Shown here: positions 9,833 to 30,313 of the stretch, piece by piece | Layout of the letters: the number at the start of each line of letters is the position of its first letter | Position numbering within the stretch: the stretch's first letter is position 1 | Assembly (NCBI GenBank): GCA_018657065.1 | Contig: JABHXU010000011.1 | Location: 22,948-86,947 of the forward strand | Reading direction: 5' to 3' | Source: an archaeon | GTDB taxonomy: Archaea > Nanobdellota > Nanobdellia > Woesearchaeales > GW2011-AR15 | Length of the DNA: 64,000 bases | Program-made: the position numbers and the translations under genes | The notes under the pieces: model-generated | The model's input: the letters and a program-made list of their open reading frames with translations, nothing else | The model's database searches: none | Told to the model about the DNA's origin: nothing

Positions 9833-10360
9833 CTAAGATACTGTTGCTCTTATTGTTCCTGTAACTGTTTGATTTATTTTACTTCCTACTGGCCAAACAT
9901 GTAGTGTTATAAGTCCATTAATTTTTCGTCCTGAAGGAACTTGTATATCACAATTATTTAAAGATACAACATCACTAATAACTCCATTAACTAATATGCC
10001 GTTTCCTGCATCAAATTCTCCAGCACCAGTATAAAGATTATCTCCATCTATATCTAATGCCCCATATTGGCCTGGATCACAATTCCAAATTCCAATATCA
10101 TTTCCTTCTCCTTCAATATCAACAACAAATGCTTGAATATTTTTGGATAAAATATTTTTTAACTCTAATTGTACATTAGAACTTCCAACATTATAATTTT
10201 CACAACTTAATGCATTTGAAATATCACATTTATCAGGAAGAAGTCTACCTAAATCAATGACTCCAAATCCAATCAATGCTCCAATAGCTAACATAACAAT
10301 AAAAATTGTAACTCCGTATATCATTAAGGTTTCAACAGCAGCTTGTGCTCTTTTATTCAT
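9833..10360 (-). CDS. Archaeal type IV pilin-like protein (class III signal peptide)
   Basis: The N-terminus MNKRA/QAAVETLMIYGVTIFIVMLAIGALIG fits the prepilin consensus: basic residues, then [GA], Gln at +1, Glu at +5, then a hydrophobic helix. The body is beta-rich with paired Cys. The gene overlaps its upstream neighbour by 4 nt. Confidence 0.75.
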   Translation of the reverse strand: MNKRAQAAVETLMIYGVTIFIVMLAIGALIGFGVIDLGRLLPDKCDISNALSCENYNVGSSNVQLELKNILSKNIQAFVVDIEGEGNDIGIWNCDPGQYGALDIDGDNLYTGAGEFDAGNGILVNGVISDVVSLNNCDIQVPSGRKINGLITLHVWPVGSKINQTVTGTIRATVS

Positions 10361-11097
10361 TTTTTATCTACCTCTTTCATTCTTTTACTAATATCAGATA
10401 ATTCACTAACATTTTCTGTAAAAGCTGGCAAAACTTTTGAAAAAACACGTTCCATAGCTTTAATTTCTGAACCTACTTCCATAATGTGTCTATCGTACTC
10501 TCCTACTTTTCCAACTATAGCTTTTTGTAAATCTGAAAAACTTTCTTTTAAATGATCTATTTTTACTTCCATTTCTGAAATCCTAGATTCGACTTTATTT
10601 TTCCATTTTACAATTTTACTTACATCTCTAAGTAATTCTTCCCATTTTTCTTCAATTATTGTCTCAACTAATTCTTCAATTTTAACTTGGTTTTCTCCGA
10701 ATATATCCCTTACAGAAGGTTGAGGAGATGATGTTGATTCTACTTGACTTGTTTGAAAATTATTTGTTGGTGTACTTGAATCAAATTGCATAGTTTGCAT
10801 TCCGTCTTGAGCTGGTTGCACAGGTGCTGCTGCAGGAACAGCTGCTTGTTGAGGTTGTTCAGGTTGTCCTACTGGAGGTGTTGAAAATAAATCTGAACCT
10901 CCTGTTGTAGCTTGAACAGGTGCATTTGTTACAGGTTGTAATCCTTCAACTGCAACTTTTGTATCTACTTGATTCATAGCATCAAATATTTGAGTATTTG
11001 AATATCCATTTCTTTGCATATTTTGGATTATTTGATTATTTGAAAGGCCTTGTTGCCTCATTTGAATAATCTCATTTATAGGGTTTCCTTGTGCCAT
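10357..11097 (-). CDS. Pilus-locus protein: small helical N-domain, P/Q-rich linker, C-terminal coiled coil
   Basis: The N-terminus IIQMRQQGLSNNQIIQNMQRNGYSNTQIFDAM carries the R..G[LI]....I...[LM]...G[YW]....I..A motif. The same motif occurs twice in the tail of the 61551-64000 protein. A PQQAAVPAAAPVQPAQ linker is followed by a heptad-rich C-terminus. Confidence 0.5.
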   Translation of the reverse strand: MAQGNPINEIIQMRQQGLSNNQIIQNMQRNGYSNTQIFDAMNQVDTKVAVEGLQPVTNAPVQATTGGSDLFSTPPVGQPEQPQQAAVPAAAPVQPAQDGMQTMQFDSSTPTNNFQTSQVESTSSPQPSVRDIFGENQVKIEELVETIIEEKWEELLRDVSKIVKWKNKVESRISEMEVKIDHLKESFSDLQKAIVGKVGEYDRHIMEVGSEIKAMERVFSKVLPAFTENVSELSDISKRMKEVDKK

Positions 11098-11141
11098 TTT
11101 TTATCTTAATTTAAGATTATTAGAGTATAAATAACTTTCGT

Positions 11142-11603
11142 TCATCTCTTTAACAATTCTTCTGCTTGTTTTCTAGTTAAAAATTCTATAGGTTGCCATA
11201 ATTCAACATATTTTGATAAGGTTTGTAATTCTGATTTATTAACTGACATCTCAATTTCTGTTTCAAGTTTAACAATATTTTCATTTAACATAGAAACATC
11301 ATTTTTGATACCTGAAATTGTTTCATTTAATGTCCTAATTTCTAAAAATATGTCTTTAGCATCTTTAAGCATGTTTTGTTCAGTAAATTGAGTTTTTTTT
11401 CGTAGACCTGAATATCTTTCTTCAAGTAATCTTAATCGTCTCATAATTTCTTCAAACTGATTAGAAACTGGCTTAGGCATAACCATTGCAGCTTCTTCCT
11501 TCTTAGAAATAGGTTTAGGAATACTTTTTTCATCCTTTTTTGGCTCAATTCCATTTGGAACTGGTTTTTTTTCTTCTACAGGTGGTTTTTTTAGAAAGCT
11601 CAT
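11142..11603 (-). CDS. Pilus-locus coiled-coil protein
   Basis: 153-aa ORF with a Lys/Pro-rich N-terminus and a long heptad-like helix. It is the first gene of the minus-strand pilin operon and is divergent from the ATPase gene. Confidence 0.45.
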   Translation of the reverse strand: MSFLKKPPVEEKKPVPNGIEPKKDEKSIPKPISKKEEAAMVMPKPVSNQFEEIMRRLRLLEERYSGLRKKTQFTEQNMLKDAKDIFLEIRTLNETISGIKNDVSMLNENIVKLETEIEMSVNKSELQTLSKYVELWQPIEFLTRKQAEELLKR

Positions 11604-11624
11604 TAGTAATTTTTTTAAAGTTGT

Positions 11625-13919
11625 TTGAATATTATAAATTTTTGTATGGATATAGAATTTTCAGTTGAACGGATAGGTGAAGACACAACTCTTAAATGTG
11701 ATTTCTCTAATTCATCCCATGTTCCGTCTATTGAAGATAGTGAATTTACCATGGCTAAAGTCATTGAAAGACTTGCAAAAAGCCACGGAGTAACAAAATT
11801 AGTCTTCTACCAAAAAAGAGAGTATGAATATGATTATCAACAAACTCTCTTAGTAAGTGAAATTGCATCAATATATAGAGATTTATCTAAAGAAGATAAA
11901 ATTTCTCTAGCAAATTTAAGTGCAGGAAGATGTAGTATTTATGCTGAATCTTGGTATAATAAATTAAAAAATATTATCTCTAATCTTTTATTAAAAGATC
12001 CTCTTGGCGCATATGTAGAATTAAAGAGACTTAGAAGACGACAAAAAATATTATTTGAAAAAAGTAACGATGAAAATGAAACTTTTTGCATATCACATTT
12101 TGTTTCTATTATTGATTATTTAGTCCAATTATTAGAAAACACTAAATTAATTATTATTTCTAAACCCTATTTGGCAGGCTATGAATTAGGAAACAGAATC
12201 ATATATCGTAGAATTTTCAACCCTACAATTAAACCAGATTTCATGTACACAAAACTTATGAGTGCTTATCCTAAAGATGGGGAAGAAATTGACAGTTATA
12301 CTGTTGGTGAAGACACTGAAATAACTGTTTTTAGATTAAATGAAAATGTGAAAACTCTCTATCATATAATGCCTCCTGAGTTCAAGTTATCTGAAGAAAA
12401 ATATGAATTATTAGATACTGCTAGAAATATAATGGCAGAACATAAACCTGCAAAAGCAGATTTTGTTGATCCTCAAAGAATGCGAGAAGTATTTTTTAAT
12501 GTTGGAAAAGATTTAATTGAAGAATTATCCTCATATAGAAAAGTAAGAATTAAAGAAAAAGAAATTCTTGAATTAACAAAAATTCTCGTCAGATATACTG
12601 TAGGTTTTGGATTAATTGAAGTCTTACTTCAAGATGAAGAAATTCAAGATATTTCTATTAATAGTCCTATGGGTAGAATTCAAATTTTTATTGTTCATGG
12701 TAAATATGATGATTGTGTAACAAATATTATTCCTACACCTCAAGAAGCTGAGTCTTGGGCATCTAAACTCAGAATGATTTCTGGAAGGCCATTAGACGAA
12801 GCTAATCCAATTTTAGATACAGAATTAGAACTCCCAGGTGTTTCTACTAGGGTTTCTGTAATTAATAAACCACTAAATCCTACAGGACTCGCTTTCTCAT
12901 TTAGAAGACATAGAGACAAACCTTGGACTCTTCCTTTATTTATGAATTATAAGATGATTAATCCACTTGCAGCCGGTCTCTTAAGTTTTTTAATTGATGG
13001 AACAAGAACATTTATGATTTGTGGAACAAGAAGTAGTGGAAAGTCCTCATTTTTATCTTCTGTAATTGTTGAAATTATGAGAAGATATAGAATAATTACT
13101 ATCGAAGATACTCTTGAATTGCCTGTTCCTCAACTTAGAAAATTAGGTTTTAATATTCAATCAATGAAAGTTGCTTCTTCACTTACTCAAACAGGTAGTG
13201 AGGTTGATGCTACAATTGGAATTAGAGCTACATTAAGGTTAGGAGATTCATCTTTAATCGTTGGTGAAGTAAGAAGTACTGAAGCTGTAGCTCTTTACGA
13301 AGCTATGAGGGTTGGAGCTGCTGCAAATGTAGTTGCAGGAACAATTCACGCAGATTCACCATATGGACTATATGATAGAGTTGTAAATGATATTGGTGTT
13401 CCTAAAACTAGTTTTAAAGCTACAGACATTATTGTTATTGCTTCCCCAATAAAATCTGCAGACGGGTTACACAAATATAGAAGAGTAACAAAAATTACTG
13501 AAGTTCAAAAACACTGGGAAGAAGATCCTTTACTTGAACACGGATTTATGGATTTAATGAAATATGATGCTCAAAAAGATGAACTTGTTCCTACTGCAGA
13601 TTTAATTAATGGTGAATCTGAAGTTCTAAAAACAATTGCAGGAAATATTTCAGATTATGCTGGAAATTGGGATGCTGTCTGGCAAGATATTTTAGTTCGT
13701 GCCAAATATAGAGAAACACTTGTTGAAGAAGCTGTTAAAAGAAATGATTTTGACATGTTAGAAGCACCATTTGTTATATTATGTAATGATATGTTTCACA
13801 TATTTAATGAGAAAGTTAAAAAAAGAACCGGTAAACTAGATCATAAATTAATTTATCAAGAGTGGGAAAACTGGTTTAAACAAGAATTAACAAAAAGAAA
13901 AATAAGAAAATCTGGTTAA
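11625..13919 (+). CDS. Type II/IV secretion-family ATPase (archaeal PilB/FlaI(ArlI)-like, T2SSE family) with a long N-terminal extension
   Basis: FSFRRH, Walker A GTRSSGKSS, Walker B/Asp box SSLIVGEVRSTEA and His box AGTIHADSP. The listed start is TTG; an ATG lies at 11646. Confidence 0.88.
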   Translation: MNIINFCMDIEFSVERIGEDTTLKCDFSNSSHVPSIEDSEFTMAKVIERLAKSHGVTKLVFYQKREYEYDYQQTLLVSEIASIYRDLSKEDKISLANLSAGRCSIYAESWYNKLKNIISNLLLKDPLGAYVELKRLRRRQKILFEKSNDENETFCISHFVSIIDYLVQLLENTKLIIISKPYLAGYELGNRIIYRRIFNPTIKPDFMYTKLMSAYPKDGEEIDSYTVGEDTEITVFRLNENVKTLYHIMPPEFKLSEEKYELLDTARNIMAEHKPAKADFVDPQRMREVFFNVGKDLIEELSSYRKVRIKEKEILELTKILVRYTVGFGLIEVLLQDEEIQDISINSPMGRIQIFIVHGKYDDCVTNIIPTPQEAESWASKLRMISGRPLDEANPILDTELELPGVSTRVSVINKPLNPTGLAFSFRRHRDKPWTLPLFMNYKMINPLAAGLLSFLIDGTRTFMICGTRSSGKSSFLSSVIVEIMRRYRIITIEDTLELPVPQLRKLGFNIQSMKVASSLTQTGSEVDATIGIRATLRLGDSSLIVGEVRSTEAVALYEAMRVGAAANVVAGTIHADSPYGLYDRVVNDIGVPKTSFKATDIIVIASPIKSADGLHKYRRVTKITEVQKHWEEDPLLEHGFMDLMKYDAQKDELVPTADLINGESEVLKTIAGNISDYAGNWDAVWQDILVRAKYRETLVEEAVKRNDFDMLEAPFVILCNDMFHIFNEKVKKRTGKLDHKLIYQEWENWFKQELTKRKIRKSG

Positions 13920-13924
13920 TTTAT

Positions 13925-16900
13925 TTACGGACAATCATTTGGACAAGTACATTCTGTTTCATAACTATCACAAACACTATCGCCACAATTTGAACAAACA
14001 TAAGTCCATTCTGTGAGTCCAGCATCATTACAATCCACATCATATGTTTCTGCAGGTTTAATTGCTGTTAAGTCTTCACAACATTCCTTATCAATATTTG
14101 GGTCCTCAGTTCCTAAGTATGGTGATTTTTCATCGTTTCCAACTTCAATACATTCTGTTGGAGCTGGTGGATCAACACATTCTCCTAATTCACAAATTTG
14201 AGGATCTGTACATGGATTTGTTGTATCATCACAAGGTTCTTCAACACATCTTCCTACTTCACATACAAGTGGCTCGGTACATGGATTAGTTGCATCACAT
14301 TCAGGGTCACTACAAACATTTTCAATACAAATTTTATCCGAAGAACAATCTCCATTATCTACACATTCAACACAATTTCCTTCTGTACAAATTAAGTCAT
14401 CAGTACATGCTGGATCACATGGACTTGAACAATCTTCAGGACAGTTACATTCACTTTCCCAATCTTCACATACATTATTTCCACAACTTGAACAAATATA
14501 TGTTATATTTTCTGTTTCAGTTTGTTCACATGAATCATCAAAAATATCTGTAGGTAAAAGAGTATCCAATCCTTCACAACATTCTTTGTCTTTGTTAGGA
14601 TCATCATCACCTAAATCTGGTGTTTTTTCATCTTGTCCTTCAGAAATACACATATCATCTGAAACACATTTTCCATCAATACAACTTGATCCATCTGAAC
14701 AGTCTGATGAATTATTACACCCACTTATACAAGCAGCCCAGAAATTACCATATTCTCCGCCTCTACTACAACAATTGGCAGAATCTCCTCCACATTCTTC
14801 AACTGTTCCACATTTCATAAACCATGGATCTGGCGCACATACTAATAATCCATAGTAATTTTCACCATCAATTTCTTCTTCTAAACAAGCTGCTCCTTCA
14901 TCTATAGTTCCGTCACTTTCAACACATTCAAAATCAGTTTCAAGATCTTTTACATCAAAGCCTTCACTTAATCCTTTATAGATATAGTTTGTGCCTGCAT
15001 TTGAAAAAGTAGTTTTTGTTGATCCAAGCTCAGCCCCTTCACAAGTTTGATATGTAGCTACAAAATTTCCCTTACCTACTTGTTTTCCAAGATTTTGAAA
15101 CAAAATTCTACTATCTGTACAAATTCCAGAACTAAATCCTCCACCTCCACTAGATCCAGAACATGAATCTATTGGATTCTCATTTTTTGATACTTGATTA
15201 AATAAATCTGTTCCAACACAATTATTCGAACACATCTCTTTTGACCATGAATAATCACTTAATTCACTATATCCCTCTCCTACATGGAATGGAATAATAG
15301 CTAATACTCTTTGATCATTTGTCCATTTTTCATATGCTCTAGTTACATCATCAACATAATCGTCAACATTAAAACTTGGTAATTCTTTATACACTTCATA
15401 TGGATGAGGTGCCCAAGCCATTTCAGTAATCAAAATTTTTCCTTCACATAAATCTTGAGCTGGACATTCTTCTGGATTTCTTTGGATTCCTGCAATATTA
15501 GGACATAAATCAAAATCATCTTCATCACAAGGATACCCTTCTCCATCAGAATCATCATCTCTTTGCAAAGGATTAGGATAATTAACACAATTGTCACAAG
15601 CATCTCCAACATCATCTTGATCTTCATCATTTTGATTTGGATTAACTATTGATGGACAATTATCAACAATACAATCTCCTGTTCCTAGTTCTGATTGTTT
15701 ACATATTTTTGAAGCTGGAAAATCTGAAACACTATCTCCATCAATATCTTCACAATCATCTCCAATATCATTATGATCTCTATCTCTCTGATCATAATTT
15801 GCAATATTTACACAATTATCACAGACATCTGGCATACCATCTTCATCTGTATCTGTTTCATCTGTAACAACTTGATTTGATCCAGGACATAAATCTTCTG
15901 AATCCATGATTCCATCTCCATCTGAGTCATCACAAACGTCTCCTTTACCGTCTCCAGTCCAAGCATCCCAATCTTCTTGAAGTGGATTGGCATCATTAGG
16001 ACAATTATCTTCATAATCAATTACACCATCTGCATCTGCATCTGTTACATCAGGTGCAGTACATTTTAAATCTTGAAGATCTGTACAATAAGAAGAAACT
16101 TTAGCAAACCTAGCTTCATATGCTTGCGCTCCAAAAGGATCGTCTCCCCCTGGATAAGTCATATCATCTGGATCTGGATAAGTATGATCTGCATAAAGAT
16201 CTAAATAATTACAAATCTCATTATTATTATATGAATATATTGTTTCAATAAATTCATCAGGATGTACTTCAGTTATTTTTTCAAAACAATAAGTGTTGAA
16301 TGTATCTAAGATTCTTGTTCTTATATTTTTGGCAACTGTAAATGCTTTAGAATTATCTGATGCTTTGTTTTTATCAGGAATACTATCAACATTACAATAA
16401 GTGCTTGGATCTAGTTCTAATAAATGATCTATATCAATATCTTCAAACACATATCTATAGTCAAATCCTAGATAAAATGATAACCAACTTTTCATTTCCA
16501 TAAAAAATGGTTTTTCTACTCTTAAACAATCCAAATATGCTTCTTCTTTGTCAGTTATATCATGAGTTCCTGGTGTTGGTCCACAAATTTTATCATCTTG
16601 TACCGTACATGTAGAATCACAACACCCAGGACAATAATCTTTCCCTTTGTCATTCAATGCACTTCCATCAAAACAAAGACCATAATCTCCATGATCTGGC
16701 ACTTCAGGTAATTCTTCAGCTGTGCAATAATTATTATCATCAACTAAATAATTATACATTTCATAAAGGGCATCACAACTTTTCTTCATGAAAAATCCGT
16801 CACCCCAATCTTCAATTTTATAAGTAAAAGCTTCATCATGATATTCTTTAGAAGATGCCGGAGTTAATCTACATTCTTTCATTCCTAAAGTTGGTGCTAA

Positions 16901-18415: not shown

Positions 18416-18439
18416 TTTAGGTAATTTTAACGAATGATG

Positions 18440-19129
18440 CTATTTAAATTTTTCCAGAATTAGTATGTTTCCACGACCTTTTTTTATTTTTTTAAGTTTT
18501 CCTTCAGTTTCAAGTTCTGTTATCATCAAACTAATTTTTGCTTCTGATAATGCAAAATGTTTTCTTAACTCTCTTTGTGACATTCTTCCTTGATTTTTTT
18601 TAAGAAGTTGAATTATTTTATTCAAATCATCATCCATAAGGTTTAAATGTTTTTTTAGTCTAATTGTTTGGATTTTTTTATTTATTTGAATAATAATAAA
18701 AGAAAAAACTCCCATCAAAAAAATAATTAAAAAAAACAAATTCAAATATTTTATTTCTCTATCATCAAGCCCTTCTATTTCTAAATCTAAGTTATTATAA
18801 ATTGATTCTTCTTCACTTAAATCTTGAAATAAAAATAAATCAATAACATATATTCCTTCATCAATTATAGAAATATTTTCAATTGCCTTAAGTTCATTTT
18901 TCTGAGCAGAAAGTTTATAGTCTCCAATAGGAATTTCAAATTCATAACTCCCATCTTTTGATAAAAATTTTTGAGATGGATTTGAGTCAATAATAATTAG
19001 AACATCTTTCGTTTTTGATAATGTTGAATCATAAATTGATCCATATAATGTTGCCCCATAGGTAATATTTACAAGAAGAATTGCCAAAATAAAAGACAAT
19101 AATTTTTTCATTATTAAAAAGTCAGACAT
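18440..19129 (-). CDS. Membrane-anchored winged-helix regulator with extracellular prealbumin/carboxypeptidase-regulatory-like domain
   Basis: Signal peptide, then a beta-sandwich-like segment (LYGSIYD...DGSYEFEIPIGDYKL). A TM helix follows (LFFLIIFLMGVFSFIIIQI). The C-terminal wHTH is MSQRELRKHFALSEAKISLMITELETEGKLKK. Confidence 0.65.
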   Translation of the reverse strand: MSDFLIMKKLLSFILAILLVNITYGATLYGSIYDSTLSKTKDVLIIIDSNPSQKFLSKDGSYEFEIPIGDYKLSAQKNELKAIENISIIDEGIYVIDLFLFQDLSEEESIYNNLDLEIEGLDDREIKYLNLFFLIIFLMGVFSFIIIQINKKIQTIRLKKHLNLMDDDLNKIIQLLKKNQGRMSQRELRKHFALSEAKISLMITELETEGKLKKIKKGRGNILILEKFK

Positions 19130-19161
19130 TAACTTATAAAAATCTTTCTTTCAAAATTTAA

Positions 19162-20457: not shown

Positions 20458-20479
20458 TTTAAAAAAAAGAAAAAAATAA

Positions 20480-23400: not shown

Positions 23401-24697
23401 TTTCTAAAGGACATTCCTCTTTGCAAAGAGTCATAATTTCATCAAAGTTACCTGGGTCTGGTGTTGGTAATGCACTTGGATCTTCAGGATCATAATCATA
23501 TTTTTTTATACAATCTTTATAATATGCTCCAGCATATTTTTCTGTTAAATCAAGATTACCAAGATCTGAAGGAAGTATATATGCACTCATTGGTTCAGGA
23601 TCATCTGCTTTTCCTATTACTTCACTTAAACTCTTAGCTTTTTTATATATTGACCAGACTACACTTGGCCCATTACCAAAACCCTCACATTCAAATCCAT
23701 CAGGAATTTCTACATTTGGTCCTCCACTTGTTTTTGCAGGCATCCATTCAGTTTTTTCCATAGTCCAGCCTTCGCATCCAATAACATGAGGATAAATAAC
23801 ATTATCTAGTGTAATTGTTCCGCCAGTTCCTTTTCCACATTCAGTAACAGTAGCAAAAGGTGTAAAATGTTTAATCTCTGCAGTTAATTTTCTTTTTTCA
23901 AGATCAACTTCAGTAGGTATACCTATCCAAACATCTAGTAAATCATCATAGTAACCTATATTAACATCATCTCCTTGATGAAATAAACCTAAATCTTCTT
24001 CTCTAAAATACTTAATAATTTTAACAGGTTGACTAAAAACAGTATTATGAGGAATTCCATTAAAAGCAAGCATTCCTGCTACAACAGAATTACTTAATGC
24101 ATTAAATTCTCTATCAAGTTGTTTGATTCCAATTTTATCAACTGGTTGACCATTAACTGTTGCTGTTGTTCCAGGTGGAACTTCCAAAATCATAGAACCA
24201 TCAGCACTGACAACTCTAGTTGTTTTAGATGGGTCAAGAGTTTCCATTACAGTTCTAGGTAATCTATATGTTTGTCCTTCAAATCTAAGAAGGGTATCTT
24301 TTTTCTTAAATTCCATGGGATATTCAATTACAGCTACTAATGCTTCTTGTTCGATAACAACTTCAATATTTAGCACTCCATATTTTGCTTTATAACTTCG
24401 TTCTTTAGCAAAAGAATCAATACAAGGTTGTAAATTTTGTCTTATATGTTCCTCAATATAATAAGGAGAATAATCTCTTCTAAGCCCATACTTAAGCTCA
24501 GCATCAATTATATTTTGTTTTACACATTCGTAAATCAAAGACTGAAGTGAACTTTGTTTAGGTCCCATTTCAAAAACGTATTCTGAATCTGAAAGAATTG
24601 AATCTTGTGTTGTTTGTCTAATAATAAAAAAACTACCAAGAATTATTACAACTAATATTCCAATAATAACATATAAACTAACTTGTGCTTTCCTCAT
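20480..24697 (-). CDS. Giant (1405 aa) cysteine-rich surface protein: pilin-like N-terminus, ZU5-like module (HFT), Cys-rich mosaics, degenerate purple-acid-phosphatase-like C-terminal domain
   Basis: N-terminus MRKAQVSLYVIIGILVVIILG. ZU5-like segment LEVPPGTTATV...FSQPVKI...IGYYDD..DVW...KHFTPFATV. A Gly run and tandem CETDEDCEEGY.CNED..CEE units are present. The C-terminal motifs are FLGNQG, LNGNLGF, CIWNKAN and VTGYDKAYAR. Confidence 0.85.
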   Translation of the reverse strand: MRKAQVSLYVIIGILVVIILGSFFIIRQTTQDSILSDSEYVFEMGPKQSSLQSLIYECVKQNIIDAELKYGLRRDYSPYYIEEHIRQNLQPCIDSFAKERSYKAKYGVLNIEVVIEQEALVAVIEYPMEFKKKDTLLRFEGQTYRLPRTVMETLDPSKTTRVVSADGSMILEVPPGTTATVNGQPVDKIGIKQLDREFNALSNSVVAGMLAFNGIPHNTVFSQPVKIIKYFREEDLGLFHQGDDVNIGYYDDLLDVWIGIPTEVDLEKRKLTAEIKHFTPFATVTECGKGTGGTITLDNVIYPHVIGCEGWTMEKTEWMPAKTSGGPNVEIPDGFECEGFGNGPSVVWSIYKKAKSLSEVIGKADDPEPMSAYILPSDLGNLDLTEKYAGAYYKDCIKKYDYDPEDPSALPTPDPGNFDEIMTLCKEECPLESARYCLDDSVAEKITCEAIYFGFKENDGSLPGTLLNKPNAIFNVEILFQDSGDSCIYDPDGGKTSEKTFTNIECLTSALGETCEIISDDDGPAILITPICEADNCMIPKGQLKPGEANSPTLDFNLYVVNSEESTEEVCINGGAEVALAGVGSVKMEYNCENLEDPLYMGGECFLCGEKEGLTHPVYSLATKPAEKEGDDPVSDPAACFDKTEGGKCAIEGCYVSFGKEDCLHCVDGTFQISSGDDCPCRQGKGLLSGKVVGITGMIGGVDPTNEGLCLDDFDPEDPLGNGGGGGGTVTCTDDSTCPEGQTCKEGVCAAGEGGGGRGAPCSESSGACTEFDVSEFVGQRVTTKETLDTRDKKYCDSFGDLPGGTEVLIMDDAQMLSGRCWVFVESQTQTDGFKPDIFIPYEKIKDLLGVNESCETDEDCEEGYICNEDDLCEEIETCETDEDCEEGYMCNEDNVCEELEPTYDVKPIVGFYGVTPDMTVEFDAPALGYYAEDNTIVTTSDYDWFIKLDYDQDTNLTETIVDLSEIIGYWLLDLDCSEDTNLTALYDEYHELTEIPLITYMTKECAAQKLAENETFTDIVLFDYYGGDELLDINTTVKIIPMVDITGKDADWINLTAKDILSQDYHGMIFYPYNETNRVEYPHINAYGEALCEADEKFNNNDCNYESVLPEEIVIAFLGNQGYNQTSEDVVQLLMDESPDLIVLNGNLGFDSYDDWSDMMSYLEIPFISSIGIYDVAEWEDYKSDIESSFDDDLVCTGETGDQMTCEFKGISFVVSGVGTTYGTQDHDDFINDSLQTDHDWKFCIWNKANKDLRISNKEEVDNLGVSYYDLCREAGALIVTGYDKAYARTKMLSSLNPITPIVTELLEPGKTMIFMSGLGGVGNDMYDCALHDTDTWWSTIFTENYYLRDETEVVKDCTTTINNAFNYGVLFVTINDGGVERRASADFLTLDSDFVDSTTILLN
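21995..22138 (-). repeat. Two tandem 72-nt (24-codon) coding repeats
   Basis: SCETDEDCEEGYICNEDDLCEEIE / TCETDEDCEEGYMCNEDNVCEELE. At the DNA level cattac recurs at 22021 and 22093, giving a 72-nt period. Confidence 0.8.
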
Positions 24698-24831
24698 TAA
24701 ATACCCACCTAGAAACTACATCAGTATATGACCTATATAAATTTAATGAAAATCTAAAAAAAGATTTTCAAAAGTTTAGAAATATAACTCTTCAAAACTT
24801 ATTATAAAAATAAAAAATTAAGAAAAAAAAA

Positions 24832-27800
24832 CTATTTTGTTATTTCAAAAGTATCAATTATTTCATTGTTAATTGTAATGAATTCTCCTTTTGCAATATT
24901 AGGATCATCATCATAATTAAAAGTTATAAATAACGCTCCAGGTACAAAACTCGGAACTACATCATTTTCACAATGTTTTAAATTGGAATCTTTTGTAATG
25001 AATGCGTTTGATGTGTAAATAGCATCCCACCAATTATCTGTATCATGAAGTGTACAATCATATTGAGTTGCACCATGTCCACCTAAACCAGATATTAATG
25101 ACACTGTTCCTTTACTTAGATCTAAGTTATCTTGCGTAGTTATTGGATCTAATGTTGCAAGAAGTTTTGTTCTTGTATAAGCTTCATCATATCCACTTAC
25201 AATAATGGCTCCTGCATTTTTACATAAATCATAATATTTCATTCCTAGATCATCATTATCATCTTTTGCACTAATTCTTAGATCTTTGTTTGATTTATGC
25301 CAATTACAAATAACCCATTCATTTCCTTCTTGCAATGAATCAGTAATAAATGCTTCATGTCCTTGTGTCATGAAATCAGTTCCAACACCTGAAAGAATAA
25401 AAGAAACACTATCATAAACACATGTTTGTTTATTTCCATAAATTCCTTTACATTCTAATTCATTTGTCCATGGTTCAAGAACTACTGAATAATCTCCCCA
25501 ACTTTCATTTAGAAATTCTTCTTGTCCTATAACTGCAACAAATGAAATATCTTCTGAAAGATTATTTTTTAACATTTGTTCAAATTCTACAGGTCTTGCT
25601 TTGTAACCTAAATTACCTAGGTGTACTACAACGTCAGCATCTTCTTCTGTAATTAATTCTAACACTTTTTGAGCATATGCTTCTGTTCCTGAATTACCTA
25701 TAAATGCAACTCTAATTTCATCAACATCAATTGGTTCAAATTCACATTCTTCGCCTAAATAATATTGTTCAGCTTCACAAAAGAATTCTAAAAATGTATT
25801 TTTATAATCAATCTTATTAATTACTTTATCAAGTTCATCATAAGGATAAAAAATAACTCCATGATATTTTTTATTTAATGTTTCCATTGCTAGATCTTTA
25901 ATTTCATCAGGTTCCATTACTTTTGAACCAGATTCCATTACATTAACCATTGGAATAAATTTGATATAATGACTTGTCATTTTTAAGATATCTTTTACTT
26001 GATCAACATCATTATCTGGACTATCTGATTCAAATAACACAACATCTACAAATTGTTCATCTGTGTCATCAAAAAATTCTTCAGCACATCCGAGTGTTCT
26101 AAAGTTAATCATCACTGGAATTTCTTCATTTGATATAACAAACATATTGTATAATTCAACTAAATCTTTAGCACTTATATCCCATTTATCTTCATTACAA
26201 GGATCATCTAAAATTAAATATCCTTTAACTGAACTATCATCATAAATAATATCATCAAATTGAATGTCATCAAAATCAATTTCTTCATGCCTTTCAAATT
26301 TAGTATCATCTAACGCTATAAATAATTCAAGTCCTTCATCATCCAAATTTAAGTCTTCTGAATTATCTTCGTCATAATAACCTGCGGTTACTGCACCTAG
26401 ATCATCTACTTGTCTAAATTGTTCTTCTAGAACAGGATAAAAACCAAGCATGACTGAAATTTCTCTAGGGTCTTCTCCTGTAAATTCTGTAACACATTTT
26501 CCTTCTTGACATAAACAATTTCCTTGTCCACAGTCTAAAGTATCTGGAACACATTCTTGTGTGCAATCGACTGCTGAACAATCTGGCGCAGCGTCAACAT
26601 GTGTGCATGAATCTGCATGACAACAAGTTGCAGGAACACAATCCTCATCACTTGTACATTCTGGAATTTCTATACAAATCCCTTCTTCACCACAATAATA
26701 ATCTTCTTCACAATCATCACTTGATTCACATGTTTGTGATAAATCTATAAACTCTTCAATGTCACTAAACATTGCATAAAATTCAGGTTCATCTCCATCA
26801 TAAATTTCTAATGCTCTTAAAAAAAACCAACAAATTTCTTCTCTATAAGCTGAATCTAAAATTTCAAGTTCAACATCATAACTAAATTCAAATGCATCTG
26901 GATATTTTCCTTTTTCTTCACTTGCCCCAAAACTATCTCTAAATTGTCTATCTCTAATAATAAATGATTCTCCTTCAAGAACTTTAAAAATTGCCCCCAT
27001 ATAATTATCAAAGTCATCAGGACATTGATCATATTCTTTAGGTTCATCATCTCCATCTGGAACACATGCACCATCCTTACATTTTTCATCTGCTGCGCAA
27101 TCTTCGTTAGTTGTACATCCAATTGGTTCAGGTTCTCCTGGTAAAGGAGTTTCAATTGGTGGAATAGGTTCAACTGGTGTTAATGGTGATAATGGTGCAA
27201 TTGGAAATCCTCCTGTATTAGGAAATTGAGGTGTTGTATCAATCGCAGAGCCATCTGAAGTCAATGTTGCTTCCCATAAACATTGTGTTTCAAAAGAATC
27301 ATAAGGTCCACTTGAGCCTGTTGTACCTCCACTTCCATCTGAAGGCACACATTTCTTCTCTTTTAATTCACATCCTGGTGCACTATCACAACCATCTAAA
27401 TTATCAAACTCTTTTGTAAATTGATTACAATCTTCTTCAACTGCTACTTCGGGTTCTTCTCCTGATTCATCTGGATCTATTTTGGCTATCCTATCACAGT
27501 ATGCAAATCCTGAATCTCCTTTGCAAACAGTCCCGATAGGACAGATTTTACATTGTCCATCTGGATTTGTTTTACCATTTTTTTTATCACATATTTTTCC
27601 ATTTGAACTTTTACATACTGAATCAGTATAAAGCAGAGTTTCACAATATGCAAATTTATATTCTCCTAAACATTTACACACATTGTCTTGTGAGGTATCA
27701 ATGTGCTCAATATTAGTTGATGCCGCACACTCAGACCAAGTCATTTCCTTACCAGGGTCAAATTTATCTACTTCAGCATTTACTGATACCAAAAAAATAG

Positions 27801-27846
27801 TGAAAATTAAAACAAAAATATAGCTCTTAAGTGTTCTCGATTTCAT
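24832..27846 (-). CDS. Giant (1004 aa) secreted cysteine-rich protein with Sec-type signal peptide and degenerate purple-acid-phosphatase-like C-terminal domain
   Basis: Signal peptide IFVLIFTIFLVSVNAEV, Cys-rich N-terminal half and a Pro-rich linker. The C-terminal ~540 aa are collinear with the 1405-aa protein (YHGVIFYPY, AFIGNSG, HLGNLGY, VIGQEEF, CNWHKSNKDLRIS, VSGYDEAYTR). Confidence 0.85.
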   Translation of the reverse strand: MKSRTLKSYIFVLIFTIFLVSVNAEVDKFDPGKEMTWSECAASTNIEHIDTSQDNVCKCLGEYKFAYCETLLYTDSVCKSSNGKICDKKNGKTNPDGQCKICPIGTVCKGDSGFAYCDRIAKIDPDESGEEPEVAVEEDCNQFTKEFDNLDGCDSAPGCELKEKKCVPSDGSGGTTGSSGPYDSFETQCLWEATLTSDGSAIDTTPQFPNTGGFPIAPLSPLTPVEPIPPIETPLPGEPEPIGCTTNEDCAADEKCKDGACVPDGDDEPKEYDQCPDDFDNYMGAIFKVLEGESFIIRDRQFRDSFGASEEKGKYPDAFEFSYDVELEILDSAYREEICWFFLRALEIYDGDEPEFYAMFSDIEEFIDLSQTCESSDDCEEDYYCGEEGICIEIPECTSDEDCVPATCCHADSCTHVDAAPDCSAVDCTQECVPDTLDCGQGNCLCQEGKCVTEFTGEDPREISVMLGFYPVLEEQFRQVDDLGAVTAGYYDEDNSEDLNLDDEGLELFIALDDTKFERHEEIDFDDIQFDDIIYDDSSVKGYLILDDPCNEDKWDISAKDLVELYNMFVISNEEIPVMINFRTLGCAEEFFDDTDEQFVDVVLFESDSPDNDVDQVKDILKMTSHYIKFIPMVNVMESGSKVMEPDEIKDLAMETLNKKYHGVIFYPYDELDKVINKIDYKNTFLEFFCEAEQYYLGEECEFEPIDVDEIRVAFIGNSGTEAYAQKVLELITEEDADVVVHLGNLGYKARPVEFEQMLKNNLSEDISFVAVIGQEEFLNESWGDYSVVLEPWTNELECKGIYGNKQTCVYDSVSFILSGVGTDFMTQGHEAFITDSLQEGNEWVICNWHKSNKDLRISAKDDNDDLGMKYYDLCKNAGAIIVSGYDEAYTRTKLLATLDPITTQDNLDLSKGTVSLISGLGGHGATQYDCTLHDTDNWWDAIYTSNAFITKDSNLKHCENDVVPSFVPGALFITFNYDDDPNIAKGEFITINNEIIDTFEITK

Positions 27847-27847
27847 T

Positions 27848-30313
27848 TTATGGCACCTCCTCAGTTGTAGGTGGATTTAAATTATCAGTCACCGCTGTAG
27901 GAAATCCATTATTTTCTGTTGTTGCAGGTAATGTTGCTTTAGATAAACAATCACAATTATCTGCATCAATTATTTCAACTTCACCATATAACGGGTTGCT
28001 TCCAGGTTTACAAAATACACAATTAGGTTCATTTGTAGGATTTGGATAAGTTTTACCTATAACTGATGCTGCACAAATTTGATTATTATAATTTAAACAA
28101 GTTGTTGAATCTGTTGTAGGTCTCCAAATATATTTAACTATTTCTTCTTTTGCCGCATCTGGTGCATTAGCTGCATCATCTTTACAACTACTTCCTGCTT
28201 TATTACAAATTTGTCTTAAACAGCTACTACAAAAACCTTTTACATAATCGATTTTTCCAACTAATTCTGCATTACAAAGCAAACTATGATCTGCTTTAAC
28301 TCCTGTCCCCATAAAATTTATCTCTGCACTTCCCTGAATACATGCATCAGGATCAGATCCATTATTTTCTACTTCTAAAAAGAAATATATACGAGGATTT
28401 CCTGCACCTGTTTCATCAAAATACGCGCTTCTAATAGCACAATCATCTTCACTTAAACATTTTGGAACAATTTCTACATTAAAAGTATCTTTATAATTTC
28501 CATCTGTTTGATTTAAACGTTTAACAGGAACTATTTGAGGAAACCTATCTCCTTTTTCTACTGAACTTGATTCTGTAGAAGGAATTTGAGAAGTCCAATC
28601 ACTATAACTTAAAGATGTACCTGTTGGTGGTTGCTGTGAATTTGTTCCCTGACTAGCTACACAAGCATTTCCATTTTTTTCAAATTCTATTTGATAATAA
28701 CCTCTTCCCATAAGCCCAACTTCTGGTTCCGAAGGATCTGGTCGTTTCCAAGTTCCATCTATATTTTTATTTGTCTTTGCATATTTATATGCTTTTAAAC
28801 TTCCTAAATAACAAAATGAAACTTCTCTACTATCTTTCTCTGCAAAAGCATAACATGTTCCTTCACAAACTGATTCACAATCACTTGTTTTTGCAAATAT
28901 TTTTTTGTTATCTGGAGTTATTAAATCTTTAATTTTAAGATATGTAACTATATTTTCAACATAAGTACAGTCAGTCACAGTAGAGTCATCAACGATTGAT
29001 CCATCTGGACACTCAATAGTGCCTTCATCAACTTCACTTAAACTATATCCTTCATCAAAAATTGTTAAATCATCTAAGGTTAATTCTCTTTCAACAACTT
29101 CGCAAGTTAATATATGCTGCTTTATTATTTTTTCATTCCACAATGTTTTAGCAGCTTCATCATCTTCATCCCATTTCACATCTGAACCATCAACATCTAT
29201 TAATTTTTCAATTTCATTGTCTGTACTTTCTTTAAAAACAAGCTCTATCATTTCATTTCTTTTAGCTGCATACTCAACAAAATCAATATCATCTTTAATA
29301 TCATCTTCATTTTTATATAATTCACCTAGACCTTCTGCGGTTCCTTCATTCCAACCTTCACAACCACCACCAACTTTGTTATCACAAATTTGTTTAACAA
29401 TTGTAGGTGTTGCTACACTTGTTATAGGTTCATCTTTTCCACCACAATTAATAGTTATTCCGTAAACAGAAAAGTGATTTGTATATGCAGTCATTTTATT
29501 TACTTCTGAATCAACAACTGTAGGAAGACCAACCCAAATTCCAATTGTATCATGGTAATAACCAATCTTCAAATTTTCTTCATTAATAAAAGGTGGAACA
29601 TCTATATCATCATAATATGCTATAACTTTTACCGGTTTAGAAAATGAGACTCCATGAGGTGCAGCGTAAAACGCTCTTCTTCCTAGAAGTACAGAATTAG
29701 ATAGGCCATTAAAGTGTTTATCAAGATTTTTTAAAGTTATTTCCTCAACTTCTTCATCACCTACATATGCCTTTGTTCCAGGTTCAATTTCAATCACAAA
29801 TCCTCCATCAGTTGAAGTAATTAGAGTTGTTTTGTCTGGATTAATATCTTCAGTCACAGATCTAGGTAAAGTATAAGTTGTATCATCATGATTAAGTTTT
29901 AATGTTCCTCTTGACATTCTAACTTCATAGTTTAATTCAACAATAAGTGCGTTATTTGTAAGAATAGCGTTAGCCTTTGGGTCTTTAGATGTCACGTCAA
30001 AATTTTGTTCTTCAAATGCATTAAAATTATCTAAACATTCTGGCATAGAATACTCAACATATGCAGCAATAGGTGCTATTGAAGCTTTTTTATCTAAACC
30101 AAACCGTTTTTCCGCTTCAATAGTAGATATCTCAATACAATGTTCTACATATGCATCAAGAAAATCTTGATCAAGTTTTGCGTCTCCAGATCTTATACGC
30201 TCAATATCAAATTCTGTTTTTGAATTATCCATCCTAAGAAGGATTAGTGTTCCAACAATAATAACTATAATCAACCCAATTATTACAAATAGACTTACTT
30301 GTGACTTTTTCAT
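27848..30313 (-). CDS. Giant (821 aa) cysteine-rich surface protein: pilin-like N-terminus, ZU5-like module (HFS), Cys-rich C-terminal region
   Basis: N-terminus MKKSQVSLFVIIGLIIVIIVG. The first ~330 aa are collinear with the 1405-aa protein (YTLPRS..., IEIEPGTKAYV, FSKPVKVIAYY, IGYYHD.IGIW, NHFSVYGI, GCEGWNEG). Confidence 0.85.
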   Translation of the reverse strand: MKKSQVSLFVIIGLIIVIIVGTLILLRMDNSKTEFDIERIRSGDAKLDQDFLDAYVEHCIEISTIEAEKRFGLDKKASIAPIAAYVEYSMPECLDNFNAFEEQNFDVTSKDPKANAILTNNALIVELNYEVRMSRGTLKLNHDDTTYTLPRSVTEDINPDKTTLITSTDGGFVIEIEPGTKAYVGDEEVEEITLKNLDKHFNGLSNSVLLGRRAFYAAPHGVSFSKPVKVIAYYDDIDVPPFINEENLKIGYYHDTIGIWVGLPTVVDSEVNKMTAYTNHFSVYGITINCGGKDEPITSVATPTIVKQICDNKVGGGCEGWNEGTAEGLGELYKNEDDIKDDIDFVEYAAKRNEMIELVFKESTDNEIEKLIDVDGSDVKWDEDDEAAKTLWNEKIIKQHILTCEVVERELTLDDLTIFDEGYSLSEVDEGTIECPDGSIVDDSTVTDCTYVENIVTYLKIKDLITPDNKKIFAKTSDCESVCEGTCYAFAEKDSREVSFCYLGSLKAYKYAKTNKNIDGTWKRPDPSEPEVGLMGRGYYQIEFEKNGNACVASQGTNSQQPPTGTSLSYSDWTSQIPSTESSSVEKGDRFPQIVPVKRLNQTDGNYKDTFNVEIVPKCLSEDDCAIRSAYFDETGAGNPRIYFFLEVENNGSDPDACIQGSAEINFMGTGVKADHSLLCNAELVGKIDYVKGFCSSCLRQICNKAGSSCKDDAANAPDAAKEEIVKYIWRPTTDSTTCLNYNNQICAASVIGKTYPNPTNEPNCVFCKPGSNPLYGEVEIIDADNCDCLSKATLPATTENNGFPTAVTDNLNPPTTEEVP

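Follow-up and report, generated by a model that had tools for sequence, protein, structure and literature searches.

The region described here lies in a 64,000-nucleotide window (the whole stretch of DNA analysed) from a Woesearchaeota (DPANN) archaeon. We favour, with some reserve, a joint reading in which a lineage-specific rearrangement has set two Woesearchaeal gene clusters side by side and in which three of the four giant proteins encoded there are self-cleaving modular pilins. Cluster A has at its core a secretion-ATPase unit of wide conservation (153-aa coiled coil, 246-aa protein and 764-aa ATPase), to which the close clade adds a small pilin with Glu at +5 (Glu5) upstream, and the giant g1496 and a membrane-bound winged-helix (wHTH) regulator downstream. 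The genes for g821, g1004, g1405 and MBL-LOG make up cluster B, a variable surface-protein island beside RNase J. The ten open reading frames are:

9833–10360, minus strand: 175-aa small pilin candidate, class III signal MNKRA/QAAVETLMIYG, Glu at +5
10357–11097, minus strand: 246-aa protein, conserved ATPase partner (tblastn: beside the ATPase in most of 67 loci)
11142–11603, minus strand: 153-aa coiled-coil protein, divergent from the ATPase and its conserved partner
11625–13919, plus strand: 764-aa PilB/FlaI/GspE-family secretion ATPase (PF00437 T2SSE, E = 3.5e-14)
13925–18415, minus strand: g1496, 1496-aa giant; class III signal, N-module, possible TIM barrel, TSP3, Cys-rich C-terminus
18440–19129, minus strand: 229-aa membrane-anchored regulator of cluster A (DUF7343 wHTH, E = 4e-16)
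19162–20457, minus strand: MBL-LOG, 431-aa fusion of a metallo-beta-lactamase fold and LOG (Lactamase_B + LOG), last gene of cluster B
20480–24697, minus strand: g1405, 1405-aa giant; class III signal MRKA/QVSLYVIIG, N-module, Cys/Gly-rich middle, C-module
24832–27846, minus strand: g1004, 1004-aa giant; ordinary Sec-type signal peptide (aa 1–24), Cys-rich N-terminal third, C-module
27848–30313, minus strand: g821, 821-aa giant; class III signal MKKS/QVSLFVIIG, N-module, Cys-rich C-terminal region

All ten were recovered with the coordinates and strands given in the first-pass annotation, and its domain calls (T2SSE ATPase, Lactamase_B + LOG, TM-anchored wHTH, class III pilin) were reproduced. 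Recomputed spacings also agree: the convergent ATPase and g1496 genes have stops 5 nt apart, g821 and g1004 are separated by 1 nt, and the later gaps are 134, 22, 32 and 24 nt. The four giants sum to 4,726 codons, as claimed. Their acidic, Cys-rich character is confirmed by a Cys fraction of 3.3–6.3% (0.84% for the window's remaining ORFs of 150 aa or more) and a pI of 4.05–4.44. Their mosaic paralogy is likewise confirmed by a ~300-aa N-module common to g821, g1405 and g1496 (E from 1e-49 to 4e-13) and a ~700-aa C-module common to g1004 and g1405 (E = 1.6e-101). The strict C....C..G.C motif occurs in only one to four copies in each giant; describing the giants as built of such repeats suits g1496 and g1004 but goes too far for g821 and g1405. 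The N-module is absent from g1004, a Sec-secreted paralogue that has the C-module alone in common.

The gene layout and synteny of both clusters were observed directly. Among the genomes compared, the junction between the wHTH and MBL-LOG genes occurs in this window only. At loci L001, L002, L003, L005 and L006, cluster B adjoins RNase J and the ATPase is absent within 10 kb; the order of cluster A is present at L009–L015, L019, L020 and L060; and one assembly has the two clusters (L011 and L002) on separate contigs, with a distance of 58 kb or more between them. Cluster B opens with g821, which is divergent from RNase J and whose orthologues adjoin RNase J at L003, L005 and L006; MBL-LOG follows the g1405 orthologue at L001 and L003/L004. 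MBL-LOG is cytoplasmic, scores 97.8 against TIGR00730 (cut-off, 96.35) and has no demonstrated tie to the giants; neither MBL-LOG nor the C-module has a match in any ATPase locus examined.

The 764-aa ATPase carries an N-terminal extension of ~220–300 aa. Its nearest solved relatives are A. fulgidus GspE (2oap, 1.6e-26), CpaF (1e-22) and FlaI (5e-19), and its match to the NCBIfam FlaI model (1.2e-41) is under the cut-off. Orthologues occur at 67 loci with 51–82% identity, some interrupted by inteins. Across 67 species-level genomes the ATPase keeps its two coiled-coil partners, in most cases with no N-module gene nearby. The 246-aa partner, which gave only coiled-coil noise against Pfam and NCBIfam, has a small helical domain at its N-terminus that a Pro/Gln-rich linker joins to a C-terminal coiled coil, and is predicted to be cytoplasmic because it has no transmembrane segment. 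Its gene overlaps that of the 175-aa pilin candidate by 4 nt. The candidate has no Pfam or NCBIfam match, and its orthologues (KAQ[AL]AVETL[LM]IYG) follow the 246-aa gene at 8 of 43 ATPase loci, all from the close clade. In the regulator, an outside domain of ~100 aa lies between a signal/TM segment and a second TM segment, and the DUF7343 winged helix that follows is cytoplasmic; its orthologues come after g1496 at L011 and L020, and directly after the ATPase at L009, L010 and L014.

The first-pass annotation had proposed a single dedicated apparatus, in which the adjacent ATPase and pilin operon assemble or display all four giants and MBL-LOG and the wHTH regulator are integral parts. We consider this improbable. 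The neighbourhood is conserved in part: in 8 of the 11 closest genomes, window counted, the gene next after the ATPase encodes a g1496-type giant (orthologues at L011, L012, L013, L015, L019, L020 and L060), with the wHTH adjoining, and the class III signals on three giants and the Glu5 pilin gene in the same neighbourhood also fit such an apparatus. However, the ATPase and g1496 genes are convergent and are therefore not co-transcribed, and the same close clade is also collinear for the unrelated housekeeping genes DnaG, UbiA and UPPS, so the adjacency of giant and ATPase may reflect inherited gene order rather than a functional link. The window encodes neither a platform protein (T2SSF) nor an A24 prepilin (class III signal) peptidase, and relatives have a separate canonical PilB gene and two PilC genes 4–6 kb away. 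The ATPase triad is present in ~60 species without an N-module gene within 10 kb, and cluster B never adjoins the ATPase in other sampled genomes. Because the two clusters abut in this genome only, and the ATPase mostly occurs without a giant in Woesearchaeota, the proposal of one apparatus of this gene composition was not borne out. What does stand is that the giants are exported surface proteins; a functional link with type IV filament machinery at large is plausible, given the strongly conserved class III signal and helix-plus-sheet head in three of the four giants.

A ~290-aa N-terminal module places these three giants, g821, g1405 and g1496, in the very large unnamed family of DPANN proteins that it defines. 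The first-pass annotation contained neither the class III signals on the giants nor the ZU5/GAIN-like module with its predicted self-cleavage. The modules and motifs in the window are:

17546–18415, minus strand: N-module of g1496 (aa 1–290); MAKS/QITVYVILG signal, pilin-like head, ZU5-like domain
17603–17611, minus strand: H269-L-S271 motif of g1496, in the N-module
15161–17548, minus strand: middle region of g1496 (aa 290–1085), candidate clan GH-A-like (beta/alpha) barrel, from alignment invariants
15506–16048, minus strand: thrombospondin type 3 (TSP3) repeats of g1496 (PF02412, E = 1.4e-11)
23828–24697, minus strand: N-module of g1405; H277-F-T279 at 23861–23869
20492–22357, minus strand: C-module of g1405, common to g1004
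24841–26985, minus strand: C-module of g1004, including a degenerate calcineurin-like phosphoesterase-like part
29429–30313, minus strand: N-module of g821; H280-F-S282 at 29468–29476

An exhaustive HMM search with the N-module without its signal as query recovered at least 3,723 cluster representatives at E ≤ 1e-3, all unnamed, and 146 at E ≤ 1e-30. Among the best 150 representatives, the match nearly always starts near the N-terminus (typically residue 30–55) and most proteins are 600–1,700 aa long. In the module, a class III signal ([KR][GAS]-Q-x-[ST]) is followed by a head of helix and sheet, in which two Cys residues are invariant, and by a ZU5/GAIN-like beta-sandwich. In an alignment of 154 family members, the signal has K/R at position −2 (127/135), G/S/A at −1 (133/135), Q at +1 (125/136), S/T at +3 (123/138) and F/Y at +5 (133/140), and 145 of 148 members have a second motif, H-[FL]-[ST].

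The AF2 model of g1405 residues 1–315 (38-sequence alignment; pLDDT 87.4, pTM 0.74) has helices at 2–70 and 77–99, a sheet at 103–153 and a second beta-sandwich at 160–285. In Foldseek, the sandwich matched the ZU5 domains of ankyrin (3kbu, 3f59; probability 1.0, target TM-scores 0.57–0.61). The Pfam ZU5, GPS and Nup98 profiles gave no match to it even at E ≤ 10, so the homology to ZU5/GAIN domains is argued from fold and motif. For the head, Foldseek did not return pilins, and ‘pilin-like’ therefore refers to its architecture and signal motif. In the model, H-[FL]-[ST] falls at the end of strand 270–277, in the turn before the last strand (281–285), a predicted position that is that of the known autoproteolytic HFS site: each ZU5 domain of PIDD is followed directly by a cleavage at HF/S, Nup98 is cleaved at HFS (PMC3210808), and microbial GAIN (MAIN) domains are cut at HX(S/T) in a beta-turn (bioRxiv 10.64898/2026.05.12.724683).

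These motifs bear on whether the giants could be ordinary N-terminally membrane-anchored (type II) surface or S-layer-like glycoproteins, with a signal-anchor and a spacer sandwich and no processing, filament or self-cleavage. This would account for the lack of a nearby peptidase or platform gene in the window, for best structural matches (ankyrin ZU5 domains) that are themselves non-proteolytic and for a sandwich that matches no profile of autoproteolytic families. It is nevertheless unlikely, as [KR][GAS]-Q-x-[ST]-x-[FY], which a plain anchor does not need, is kept in >90% of 150 divergent representatives, and the near-invariant H-[FL]-[ST], needless in a spacer, sits at the exact turn used in PIDD, Nup98, GAIN and MAIN.

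Behind the N-module, the cargo in the window includes TSP3 repeats, a possible TIM barrel (glycosidase-like) and a degenerate phosphoesterase-like module, with folds that are poorly defined. The TSP3 calcium-binding repeats of g1496 match COMP and thrombospondin-2 structures (4e-15 to 8e-12; orthologue profile, 2e-48) and interrupt the possible barrel, and the Cys-rich C-terminus contains a duplicated module of ~100 aa. We tentatively assign the middle region to a clan GH-A-like (beta/alpha) barrel: xEPN (17054–17062) and ITEMAW (15413–15430) are invariant, strands and helices alternate in an AF2 model with a pLDDT of just 53.9, the match to the GH39 beta-xylosidase profile is weak (E = 0.014–2) and Foldseek returned only weak TIM-barrel matches. 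For g1004, matches to Metallophos stay below threshold (E = 0.012; 2 of 7 family members, best 1.4e-4) and no PDB sequence matched, and the Cys-rich C-terminal region of g821 (~500 aa) has no recognisable fold.

Cargo varies across the family, with lysozyme, M23 and C39 peptidases and lipase in other N-module members. A Pfam scan of 52 members found Glyco_hydro_25 (3), Peptidase_C39_2 (3) and TSP_3 (2), and NAGPA, Peptidase_M23, DUF2341, GDSL lipase and DSPc once each. Such hypervariable C-termini that include lytic enzymes (GH25, M23, C39 and lipase), together with the mosaic paralogy of the giants and the N-terminal ZU5 domains known from polymorphic toxins (PMC3482391), could indicate polymorphic-toxin-like, contact-dependent weapons, with a ZU5-like releasing peptidase and C-terminal toxins directed at competitors, rather than adhesion or host-interaction modules. 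We regard this as very unlikely: profile scans of the window found neither a recognisable toxin domain nor an immunity gene alongside, its cargo is either adhesive- or structural-looking (TSP3, Cys-rich modules) or enzymatically degenerate, and RHS or filamentous repeats are absent.

Self-cleaving modular pilins, our preferred reading of g821, g1405 and g1496, have partial counterparts in several known systems. Bacterial modular type IV pilins, such as Streptococcus sanguinis PilB and PilC, have bulky functional modules grafted behind a small N-terminal pilin module that carries a class III signal, are likely to be located at the filament tip and have very diverse architectures (PMC8179133). 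Unlike these, the giants are archaeal, much larger (0.8–1.5 thousand aa) and have F/Y rather than Glu at +5, with a ZU5/GAIN-like predicted self-cleavage domain between the pilin module, the fold of which is unconfirmed by structure search, and the cargo. MAIN proteins (for example, B. subtilis YfkN; bioRxiv 10.64898/2026.05.12.724683) and ZU5-superfamily autopeptidases (PMC3482391) share the beta-sandwich with H-hydrophobic-S/T in the turn that precedes the last strand, and are likewise large, surface-anchored proteins with adhesive and hydrolytic cargo. The ZU5-superfamily domains are N-terminal in large bacterial surface proteins with glycohydrolase, lipase or phosphodiesterase cargo, and MAIN fragments remain non-covalently bound before the proposed release of adhesive or enzymatic cargo. 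The sandwich of the giants differs from ZU5 autopeptidases in having no sequence-profile match to ZU5 or GPS, its cleavage being predicted from motif and model. Whereas MAIN proteins usually run from signal peptide through cargo and MAIN to a C-terminal anchor (sortase or SLH), the giants have the reverse order (N-terminal class III/pilin anchor, ZU5-like domain, cargo), and the C-terminal fragment would thus be the one released.

Among archaea, sugar-binding proteins of the Sulfolobus bindosome and PilY/DUF2341-type adhesins of type IV pilus loci are also large and extracellular with prepilin-type signals, often with Cys-rich components, and probably depend on type IV filament machinery or are displayed by it (PMC4858521; bioRxiv 10.64898/2026.04.22.720090); non-pilin class III signal proteins are thought to ‘functionalise’ such machineries (bioRxiv 10.64898/2026.04.22.720090). 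One N-module family member has DUF2341, but the N-module is a different conserved domain, with no Pfam or NCBIfam model and with a self-cleavage motif, and the family is found in Woesearchaeota-type DPANN, mostly at loci that are not beside a complete ATPase-plus-platform locus. The same organisms, Woesearchaeota and Pacearchaeota, encode very large secreted proteins with bacterial-cell-wall-degrading domains, for which host attachment has been proposed (PMC8204110). The GH25 or M23 domains of some N-module members are akin to these, although that family is defined by a lytic transglycosylase domain and the giants in the window have no recognisable murein hydrolase.

From their sequences and the one predicted structure (g1405, residues 1–315), we infer that g821, g1405 and g1496 are archaeal modular pilins with a built-in release joint, which would be processed, incorporated into a filament, self-cleaved and released. 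The N-terminal hydrophobic helix would insert the giant through Sec, and class III signal peptidase would cleave after [KR][GAS], making Gln the +1 residue. The mature helix and small sheet, as a pilin-like head with one disulfide, would then hold the giant in the membrane or in a type IV filament, in the latter case probably at the tip, as Phe/Tyr replaces Glu at +5. The ZU5/GAIN-like sandwich would cut itself between [FL] and [ST], and the last beta-strand, as the new N-terminus of the cargo fragment, would remain held in the sandwich by non-covalent contacts. The cargo, which is acidic, Cys-rich and stabilised by disulfides, would be displayed on the cell, and mechanical force or contact with a partner cell could release it.

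An ORF scan reproduced every gene and spacing of the first-pass annotation, which had drawn this locus as one dedicated surface system, a type IV pilus-like module joined to a string of giant cysteine-rich proteins. The ORFs of the pilus-like side are as follows:

9833–10360, minus strand, 175-aa small pilin
10357–11097, minus strand, 246-aa protein, overlapping the 175-aa gene by 4 nt
11142–11603, minus strand, 153-aa coiled-coil protein
11625–13919, plus strand, 764-aa ATPase

The end of the ATPase gene is separated by 5 nt from the stop of a series of minus-strand genes encoding, in transcription order, proteins of 821, 1004, 1405, 431, 229 and 1496 aa; the four giants among them are named here by length (g821, g1004, g1405 and g1496). 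The domain calls were correct: the 764-aa protein belongs to the PilB/FlaI/GspE family of ATPases, the 431-aa protein combines metallo-beta-lactamase and LOG domains (MBL-LOG) and passes the curated thresholds (TIGR00730, 97.8 versus a cut-off of 96.35; PF03641, 65.6 versus 27; PF00753, 41.2 versus 22.7), and the 229-aa protein is a winged-helix protein (wHTH; DUF7343) with two transmembrane segments. The giants are acidic (pI close to 4) and contain 3.3–6.3% cysteine, compared with 0.84% in the other window ORFs of at least 150 aa. The ‘C....C..G.C’ motif is present but less repetitive than described, with one to four strict copies per protein. BLASTP upheld the mosaic paralogy, with an N-terminal module of approximately 300 aa (N-module) in g821, g1405 and g1496 and a module of approximately 700 aa (C-module) in g1004 and g1405.

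The surrounding sequence (approximately 28% GC) carries archaeal housekeeping genes, including DnaG-type primase, UbiA, UPP synthase, RNase J, a class II aminoacyl-tRNA synthetase, MsrAB and GyrA. An Rfam scan of the window returned two tRNAs and one borderline match, to ‘6A RNA’ (RF02925; 36367–36428, plus strand; 41.3 bits versus a gathering score of 41.2), which lies inside a radical-SAM/HhH ORF (36199–37284) and is therefore probably a chance match. At 5362–6459 (plus strand), this archaeal genome encodes a chaperone of bacterial type, SurA-N plus PpiC rotamase, which could assist the folding of exported proteins. A 771-aa ORF (61551–63866, minus strand) without a Pfam match is rich in N-x-S/T sequons towards the N-terminus, has a single hydrophobic segment around residues 554–590, and may encode an S-layer-like or other surface glycoprotein. 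Two neighbouring membrane proteins of approximately 245 aa (57235–57978 and 58055–58786, plus strand) resemble each other in the hydrophobic layout of their N-termini, lack a Pfam match and may be tandem paralogues. A 357-aa wHTH/low-complexity protein (48141–49214) was considered as a paralogue of the 246-aa protein and rejected, as no similarity between the two was found.

The 764-aa protein matches PF00437 (E = 3.5e-14) and 2oap (1.6e-26), as well as FlaI and CpaF, and supplies the window with the PilB/FlaI-family secretion ATPase of an archaeal type IV filament (TFF/T4P) locus. Its orthologues occur at 67 species-level loci (51–82% identity), one of them on the closed chromosome of archaeon GW2011_AR15. 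Nearly all of the records are titled as Woesearchaeota or Nanoarchaeota metagenome-assembled genomes, and some Methanosarcinales titles look mislabelled. Five orthologues among the loci fetched (L066–L070) contain in-frame inserts of approximately 500 aa with LAGLIDADG blocks, for example:

L066, 10001–13740, insert-bearing ATPase orthologue
L068, 10001–13800, insert-bearing ATPase orthologue

The inserts begin with Ser, end with HN followed by Thr and occupy two different conserved positions, after ‘..IITIED’ and after ‘..GEIRS’, features that point to two intein insertion sites within a single ATPase family. This strong conservation, together with the inteins, suggests that the function of the ATPase is important, although that function is not necessarily the assembly of the neighbouring giant.

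The rest of the module is incomplete. The 175-aa protein is recognizable as a class III filament subunit by motif only (MNKRA↓QAAVETL followed by a hydrophobic helix); this start is conserved in eight close relatives and places Glu at position +5. No window ORF of at least 100 aa matched the platform protein (T2SSF, PF00482), a tblastn search of the window with the PilC proteins of relatives found nothing, and no class III signal peptidase (Peptidase_A24) was matched within the 64 kb. The T2SSF pair of the relatives accompanies a different, 495-aa ATPase. Two loci (L014, 16856–20139; L012, 18605–21904) show this canonical type IV pilus core, with the 495-aa PilB and two split T2SSF/PilC genes. 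In relatives, the core lies 4–6 kb beyond the 764-aa ATPase, and the operon is absent from the 64-kb window. The ATPase adjacent to the giants is thus without the partners expected of a pilus assembly machine.

Gene order in related genomes resolves the locus into two clusters. Around the ATPase (cluster A), the 153-aa and 246-aa genes diverge from it in most of the 67 loci, and the small pilin gene, beyond which lie UPP synthase and DnaG, occurs only in the closest clade. A 1496-type giant, convergent after the ATPase and followed by the wHTH gene, is found in 8 of the 11 closest genomes (the window counted), and at L009, L010 and L014 the wHTH gene directly follows the ATPase. Neither MBL-LOG nor the C-module was found at any of the ATPase loci scanned. 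Cluster B was surveyed by looking up contigs that encode g1405 homologues and scanning them by tblastn. One of these (L003) has RNase J, the 821-like, 1004-like and 1405-like giants and MBL-LOG in order, then Ogg; in another (L001), the 1405-like giant and MBL-LOG are retained, and Ogg and LPG synthase come next. In three more distant genomes (L002, L005 and L006), two N-module giants adjoin RNase J with other large secreted proteins between them, including a subtilisin. A DsbB gene directly follows the two giants of L002 (19250–19765), consistent with a need to oxidize cysteine-rich proteins; none was seen in the window. At all five of these cluster B loci, no secretion ATPase was found within 10 kb. 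A single assembly carries both arrangements on different contigs, with ATPase, giant and wHTH at L011 and RNase J and giants at L002, where both contig ends are at least 58 kb away from these genes.

In addition, the window segment at approximately 19.2–38.4 kb is inverted relative to L001 and L003. A search for inverted repeats at the presumed breakpoints (approximately 19.15 and 38.4 kb) yielded only AT-rich chance matches. A tRNA-Leu (38444–38527, minus strand) is located at one presumed breakpoint of this ~19-kb inversion, and the other falls at approximately 19130–19161. At the equivalent junction of L003, LAGLIDADG endonuclease-like ORFs flank Ogg. From the separate gene orders and the inversion, it follows that the contiguous ‘16-kb string’ arose in this lineage specifically, when the end of cluster A came to lie against cluster B. 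The neighbourhood of the ATPase and the island of giant proteins are distinct units in evolution, not one machine. The proposed synteny between giants and ATPase holds for one giant type in a small clade, whereas the cluster B giants of the five related loci have no ATPase within 10 kb. It is tempting to see one new machine in the window, but the gene orders correct that reading: the system as drawn is a product of rearrangement, and its ATPase lacks the expected assembly partners. What survives is that the giants are surface proteins, linked to type IV filament biology by their signals.

The finding of value is the N-module family, which would be a variation on modular pilins and on ZU5/GAIN-type autoproteolytic surface proteins. 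The N-termini of N-module proteins in the window and the loci share the pattern M..[KR][AS]Q[IV][ST].[FY].I.G. A word-indexed homologue search with the N-module alignment gave only three matches, probably owing to crowding of the candidates by hydrophobic signal words. An exhaustive HMM/profile search with the signal-less N-module recovered 3,723 cluster representatives (50% identity clusters) at E ≤ 1e-3, and 146 at E ≤ 1e-30. Among the best 150 representatives, which are mostly 600–1,700 aa long, the match nearly always starts near the N-terminus, typically at residue 30–55. Every named member carries the title ‘hypothetical protein [archaeon / Nanoarchaeota archaeon]’.

Across 154 aligned members, the residues around the putative cleavage site are strongly constrained: K/R at −2 (127 of 135), G/S/A at −1 (133 of 135), Q at +1 (125 of 136), S/T at +3 (123 of 138) and F/Y at +5 (133 of 140). 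More than 90% of approximately 135–140 representatives retain the consensus [KR][GAS]↓Q-x-[ST]-x-[FY]-x-I-x-G, and g821, g1405 and g1496 carry it with a hydrophobic segment over residues 1–30. Judged by sequence, this pattern is an archaeal class III (prepilin) signal. The N-module giants do not have the typical pilin Glu at +5. This residue is typical of bacterial pilins and is absent from the tip pseudopilin GspK. We also considered the giants as S-layer proteins, a reading set aside because their anchor is N-terminal, not C-terminal, and because they carry the conserved prepilin motif.

An AlphaFold2 model of g1405 residues 1–315 (38-sequence alignment, pLDDT 87.4) predicts, with high confidence, a head composed of a helix (2–70), a second helix (77–99) and a small antiparallel sheet (103–153), with two invariant cysteines placed to link the helices, and a separate beta-sandwich (160–285). 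Foldseek matches to the N-module model fell mostly on this second domain, and no pilin structure was returned. Against the PDB, the modelled sandwich matched ankyrin ZU5 domains (3kbu_C/D and 3f59; probability 1.0, target TM-score 0.57–0.61, E 3e-4 to 3e-3), which indicates a predicted ZU5/GAIN-B-type fold. Neither ten sandwich segments scanned in isolation (hmmscan, E ≤ 10) nor the full-length giants gave a match to the ZU5 (PF00791), GPS or Nup98 autopeptidase profiles.

Within the sandwich, an H-[FL]-[ST] triad is present in 145 of 148 members (HFT 75, HFS 54, HLS 11 and HLT 5) and is placed by the model in the turn between strand 270–277 and the last strand (281–285). The window copies are:

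29468–29476, HFS
23861–23869, HFT
17603–17611, HLS

We took the definition of the H-hydrophobic-S/T motif from previous studies (PMC3210808; bioRxiv 10.64898/2026.05.12.724683). PIDD ZU5 and Nup98 are cleaved at HF/S (PMC3210808), and GAIN/MAIN domains at HX(S/T) (bioRxiv 10.64898/2026.05.12.724683). In the model, the N-module triad has the geometry and motif of these self-cleaving domains, and cleavage is predicted. An earlier study predicted that large bacterial surface proteins bearing hydrolytic cargo have N-terminal autopeptidases of the ZU5 superfamily (PMC3482391).

The regions beyond the N-module vary. The middle region of g1496 is common to only 8 of the best 150 representatives and the C-module to only 5. 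A Pfam scan of 52 members identified GH25 lysozyme, C39-like and M23 peptidases, NAGPA, GDSL lipase, DUF2341, dual-specificity phosphatase and TSP3 repeats; the majority had no Pfam match. In g1496, bona fide thrombospondin type 3 calcium-binding repeats interrupt a region whose xEPN motif is invariant in ten orthologues (the residue before the Glu being D, E or N) and which also has a mostly conserved [IL]TE..W (8 of 10, the Glu being replaced by Q or S in L011 and L013). Enzymes of clan GH-A are (beta/alpha)8 barrels whose acid/base Glu lies in an N-E-P motif and whose nucleophile Glu follows strand 7. This middle region gave weak GH39 profile matches (E = 0.014–2) and a poor AlphaFold2 model (pLDDT 54, eight sequences) with alternating strands and helices, for which Foldseek returned generic TIM barrels (old yellow enzymes and one GH53), none below E = 1e-3. 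A clan GH-A, GH39-like glycosidase is a tentative reading that falls short of an assignment. The C-terminus of g1496 (approximately residues 1234–1496; 13928–14700) contains a duplicated Cys-rich module of approximately 100 aa (43% identity, E = 3e-25), which also ends the 1004-like giant of L003 and has therefore been shuffled between paralogues.

The C-module resembles calcineurin-like metallophosphoesterases below threshold (best 16–18 bits versus a cut-off of 21.5), and in only two of seven members. Its aligned motifs are F-I-x-N-x-G, G-N-[LM]-G and I-G-x-x-D, whereas DxH, GD, GNH[DE] and GHxH are expected. The metal ligands are therefore replaced. PDB sequence and profile searches returned nothing for g1405 or the C-module. 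g1004 has an ordinary Sec signal and no N-module.

From these features we infer a path of peptidase processing, retention, self-cleavage and release. An N-module giant would be exported through Sec, cleaved before Gln by a class III peptidase and retained by its hydrophobic helix, which would sit either in the membrane or within a filament. The filament tip is the likely position by analogy with GspK, because Glu5 is missing. Self-cleavage at [FL]↓[ST] would leave the last strand holding the cargo non-covalently, so that cargo could be displayed and yet shed under force. This arrangement matches the bacterial ‘modular pilin’ concept (PMC8179133), to which the giants would add a MAIN/ZU5-type release joint. 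It is also consistent with the idea that class III signal proteins functionalize archaeal type IV filament machineries (bioRxiv 10.64898/2026.04.22.720090; PMC4858521). We found no description of a combined prepilin-type anchor, ZU5/GAIN-type module and cargo in the literature searched.

DPANN archaea have tiny genomes and depend on partner cells; to our knowledge, how they attach to and exploit these partners is largely unknown, and most of their large surface proteins are ‘hypothetical’. We offer, as a speculative proposal that is less likely than not, that the giant proteins of this very large family in Woesearchaeota-type DPANN (at least 3,700 clusters) are modular pilins with a ZU5/GAIN-like break point, whose tip cargo is held only by a single clamped strand after self-cleavage and is freed under tension on contact with host or prey. 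If so, type IV filaments or pilin-like stalks would bear lytic, adhesive or enzymatic tip cargo, these episymbionts would interact with their hosts mainly through the N-module family, and the window loci, one beside the conserved ATPase and the other beside RNase J, would form its hypervariable arsenal. For three of the giants and thousands of relatives, the analysis provides a testable domain logic of prepilin-type anchor, predicted self-cleaving hinge and exchangeable cargo. This logic joins two recent ideas, bacterial modular pilins and microbial GAIN/ZU5 release domains, and would carry both, newly arranged, over to archaea.
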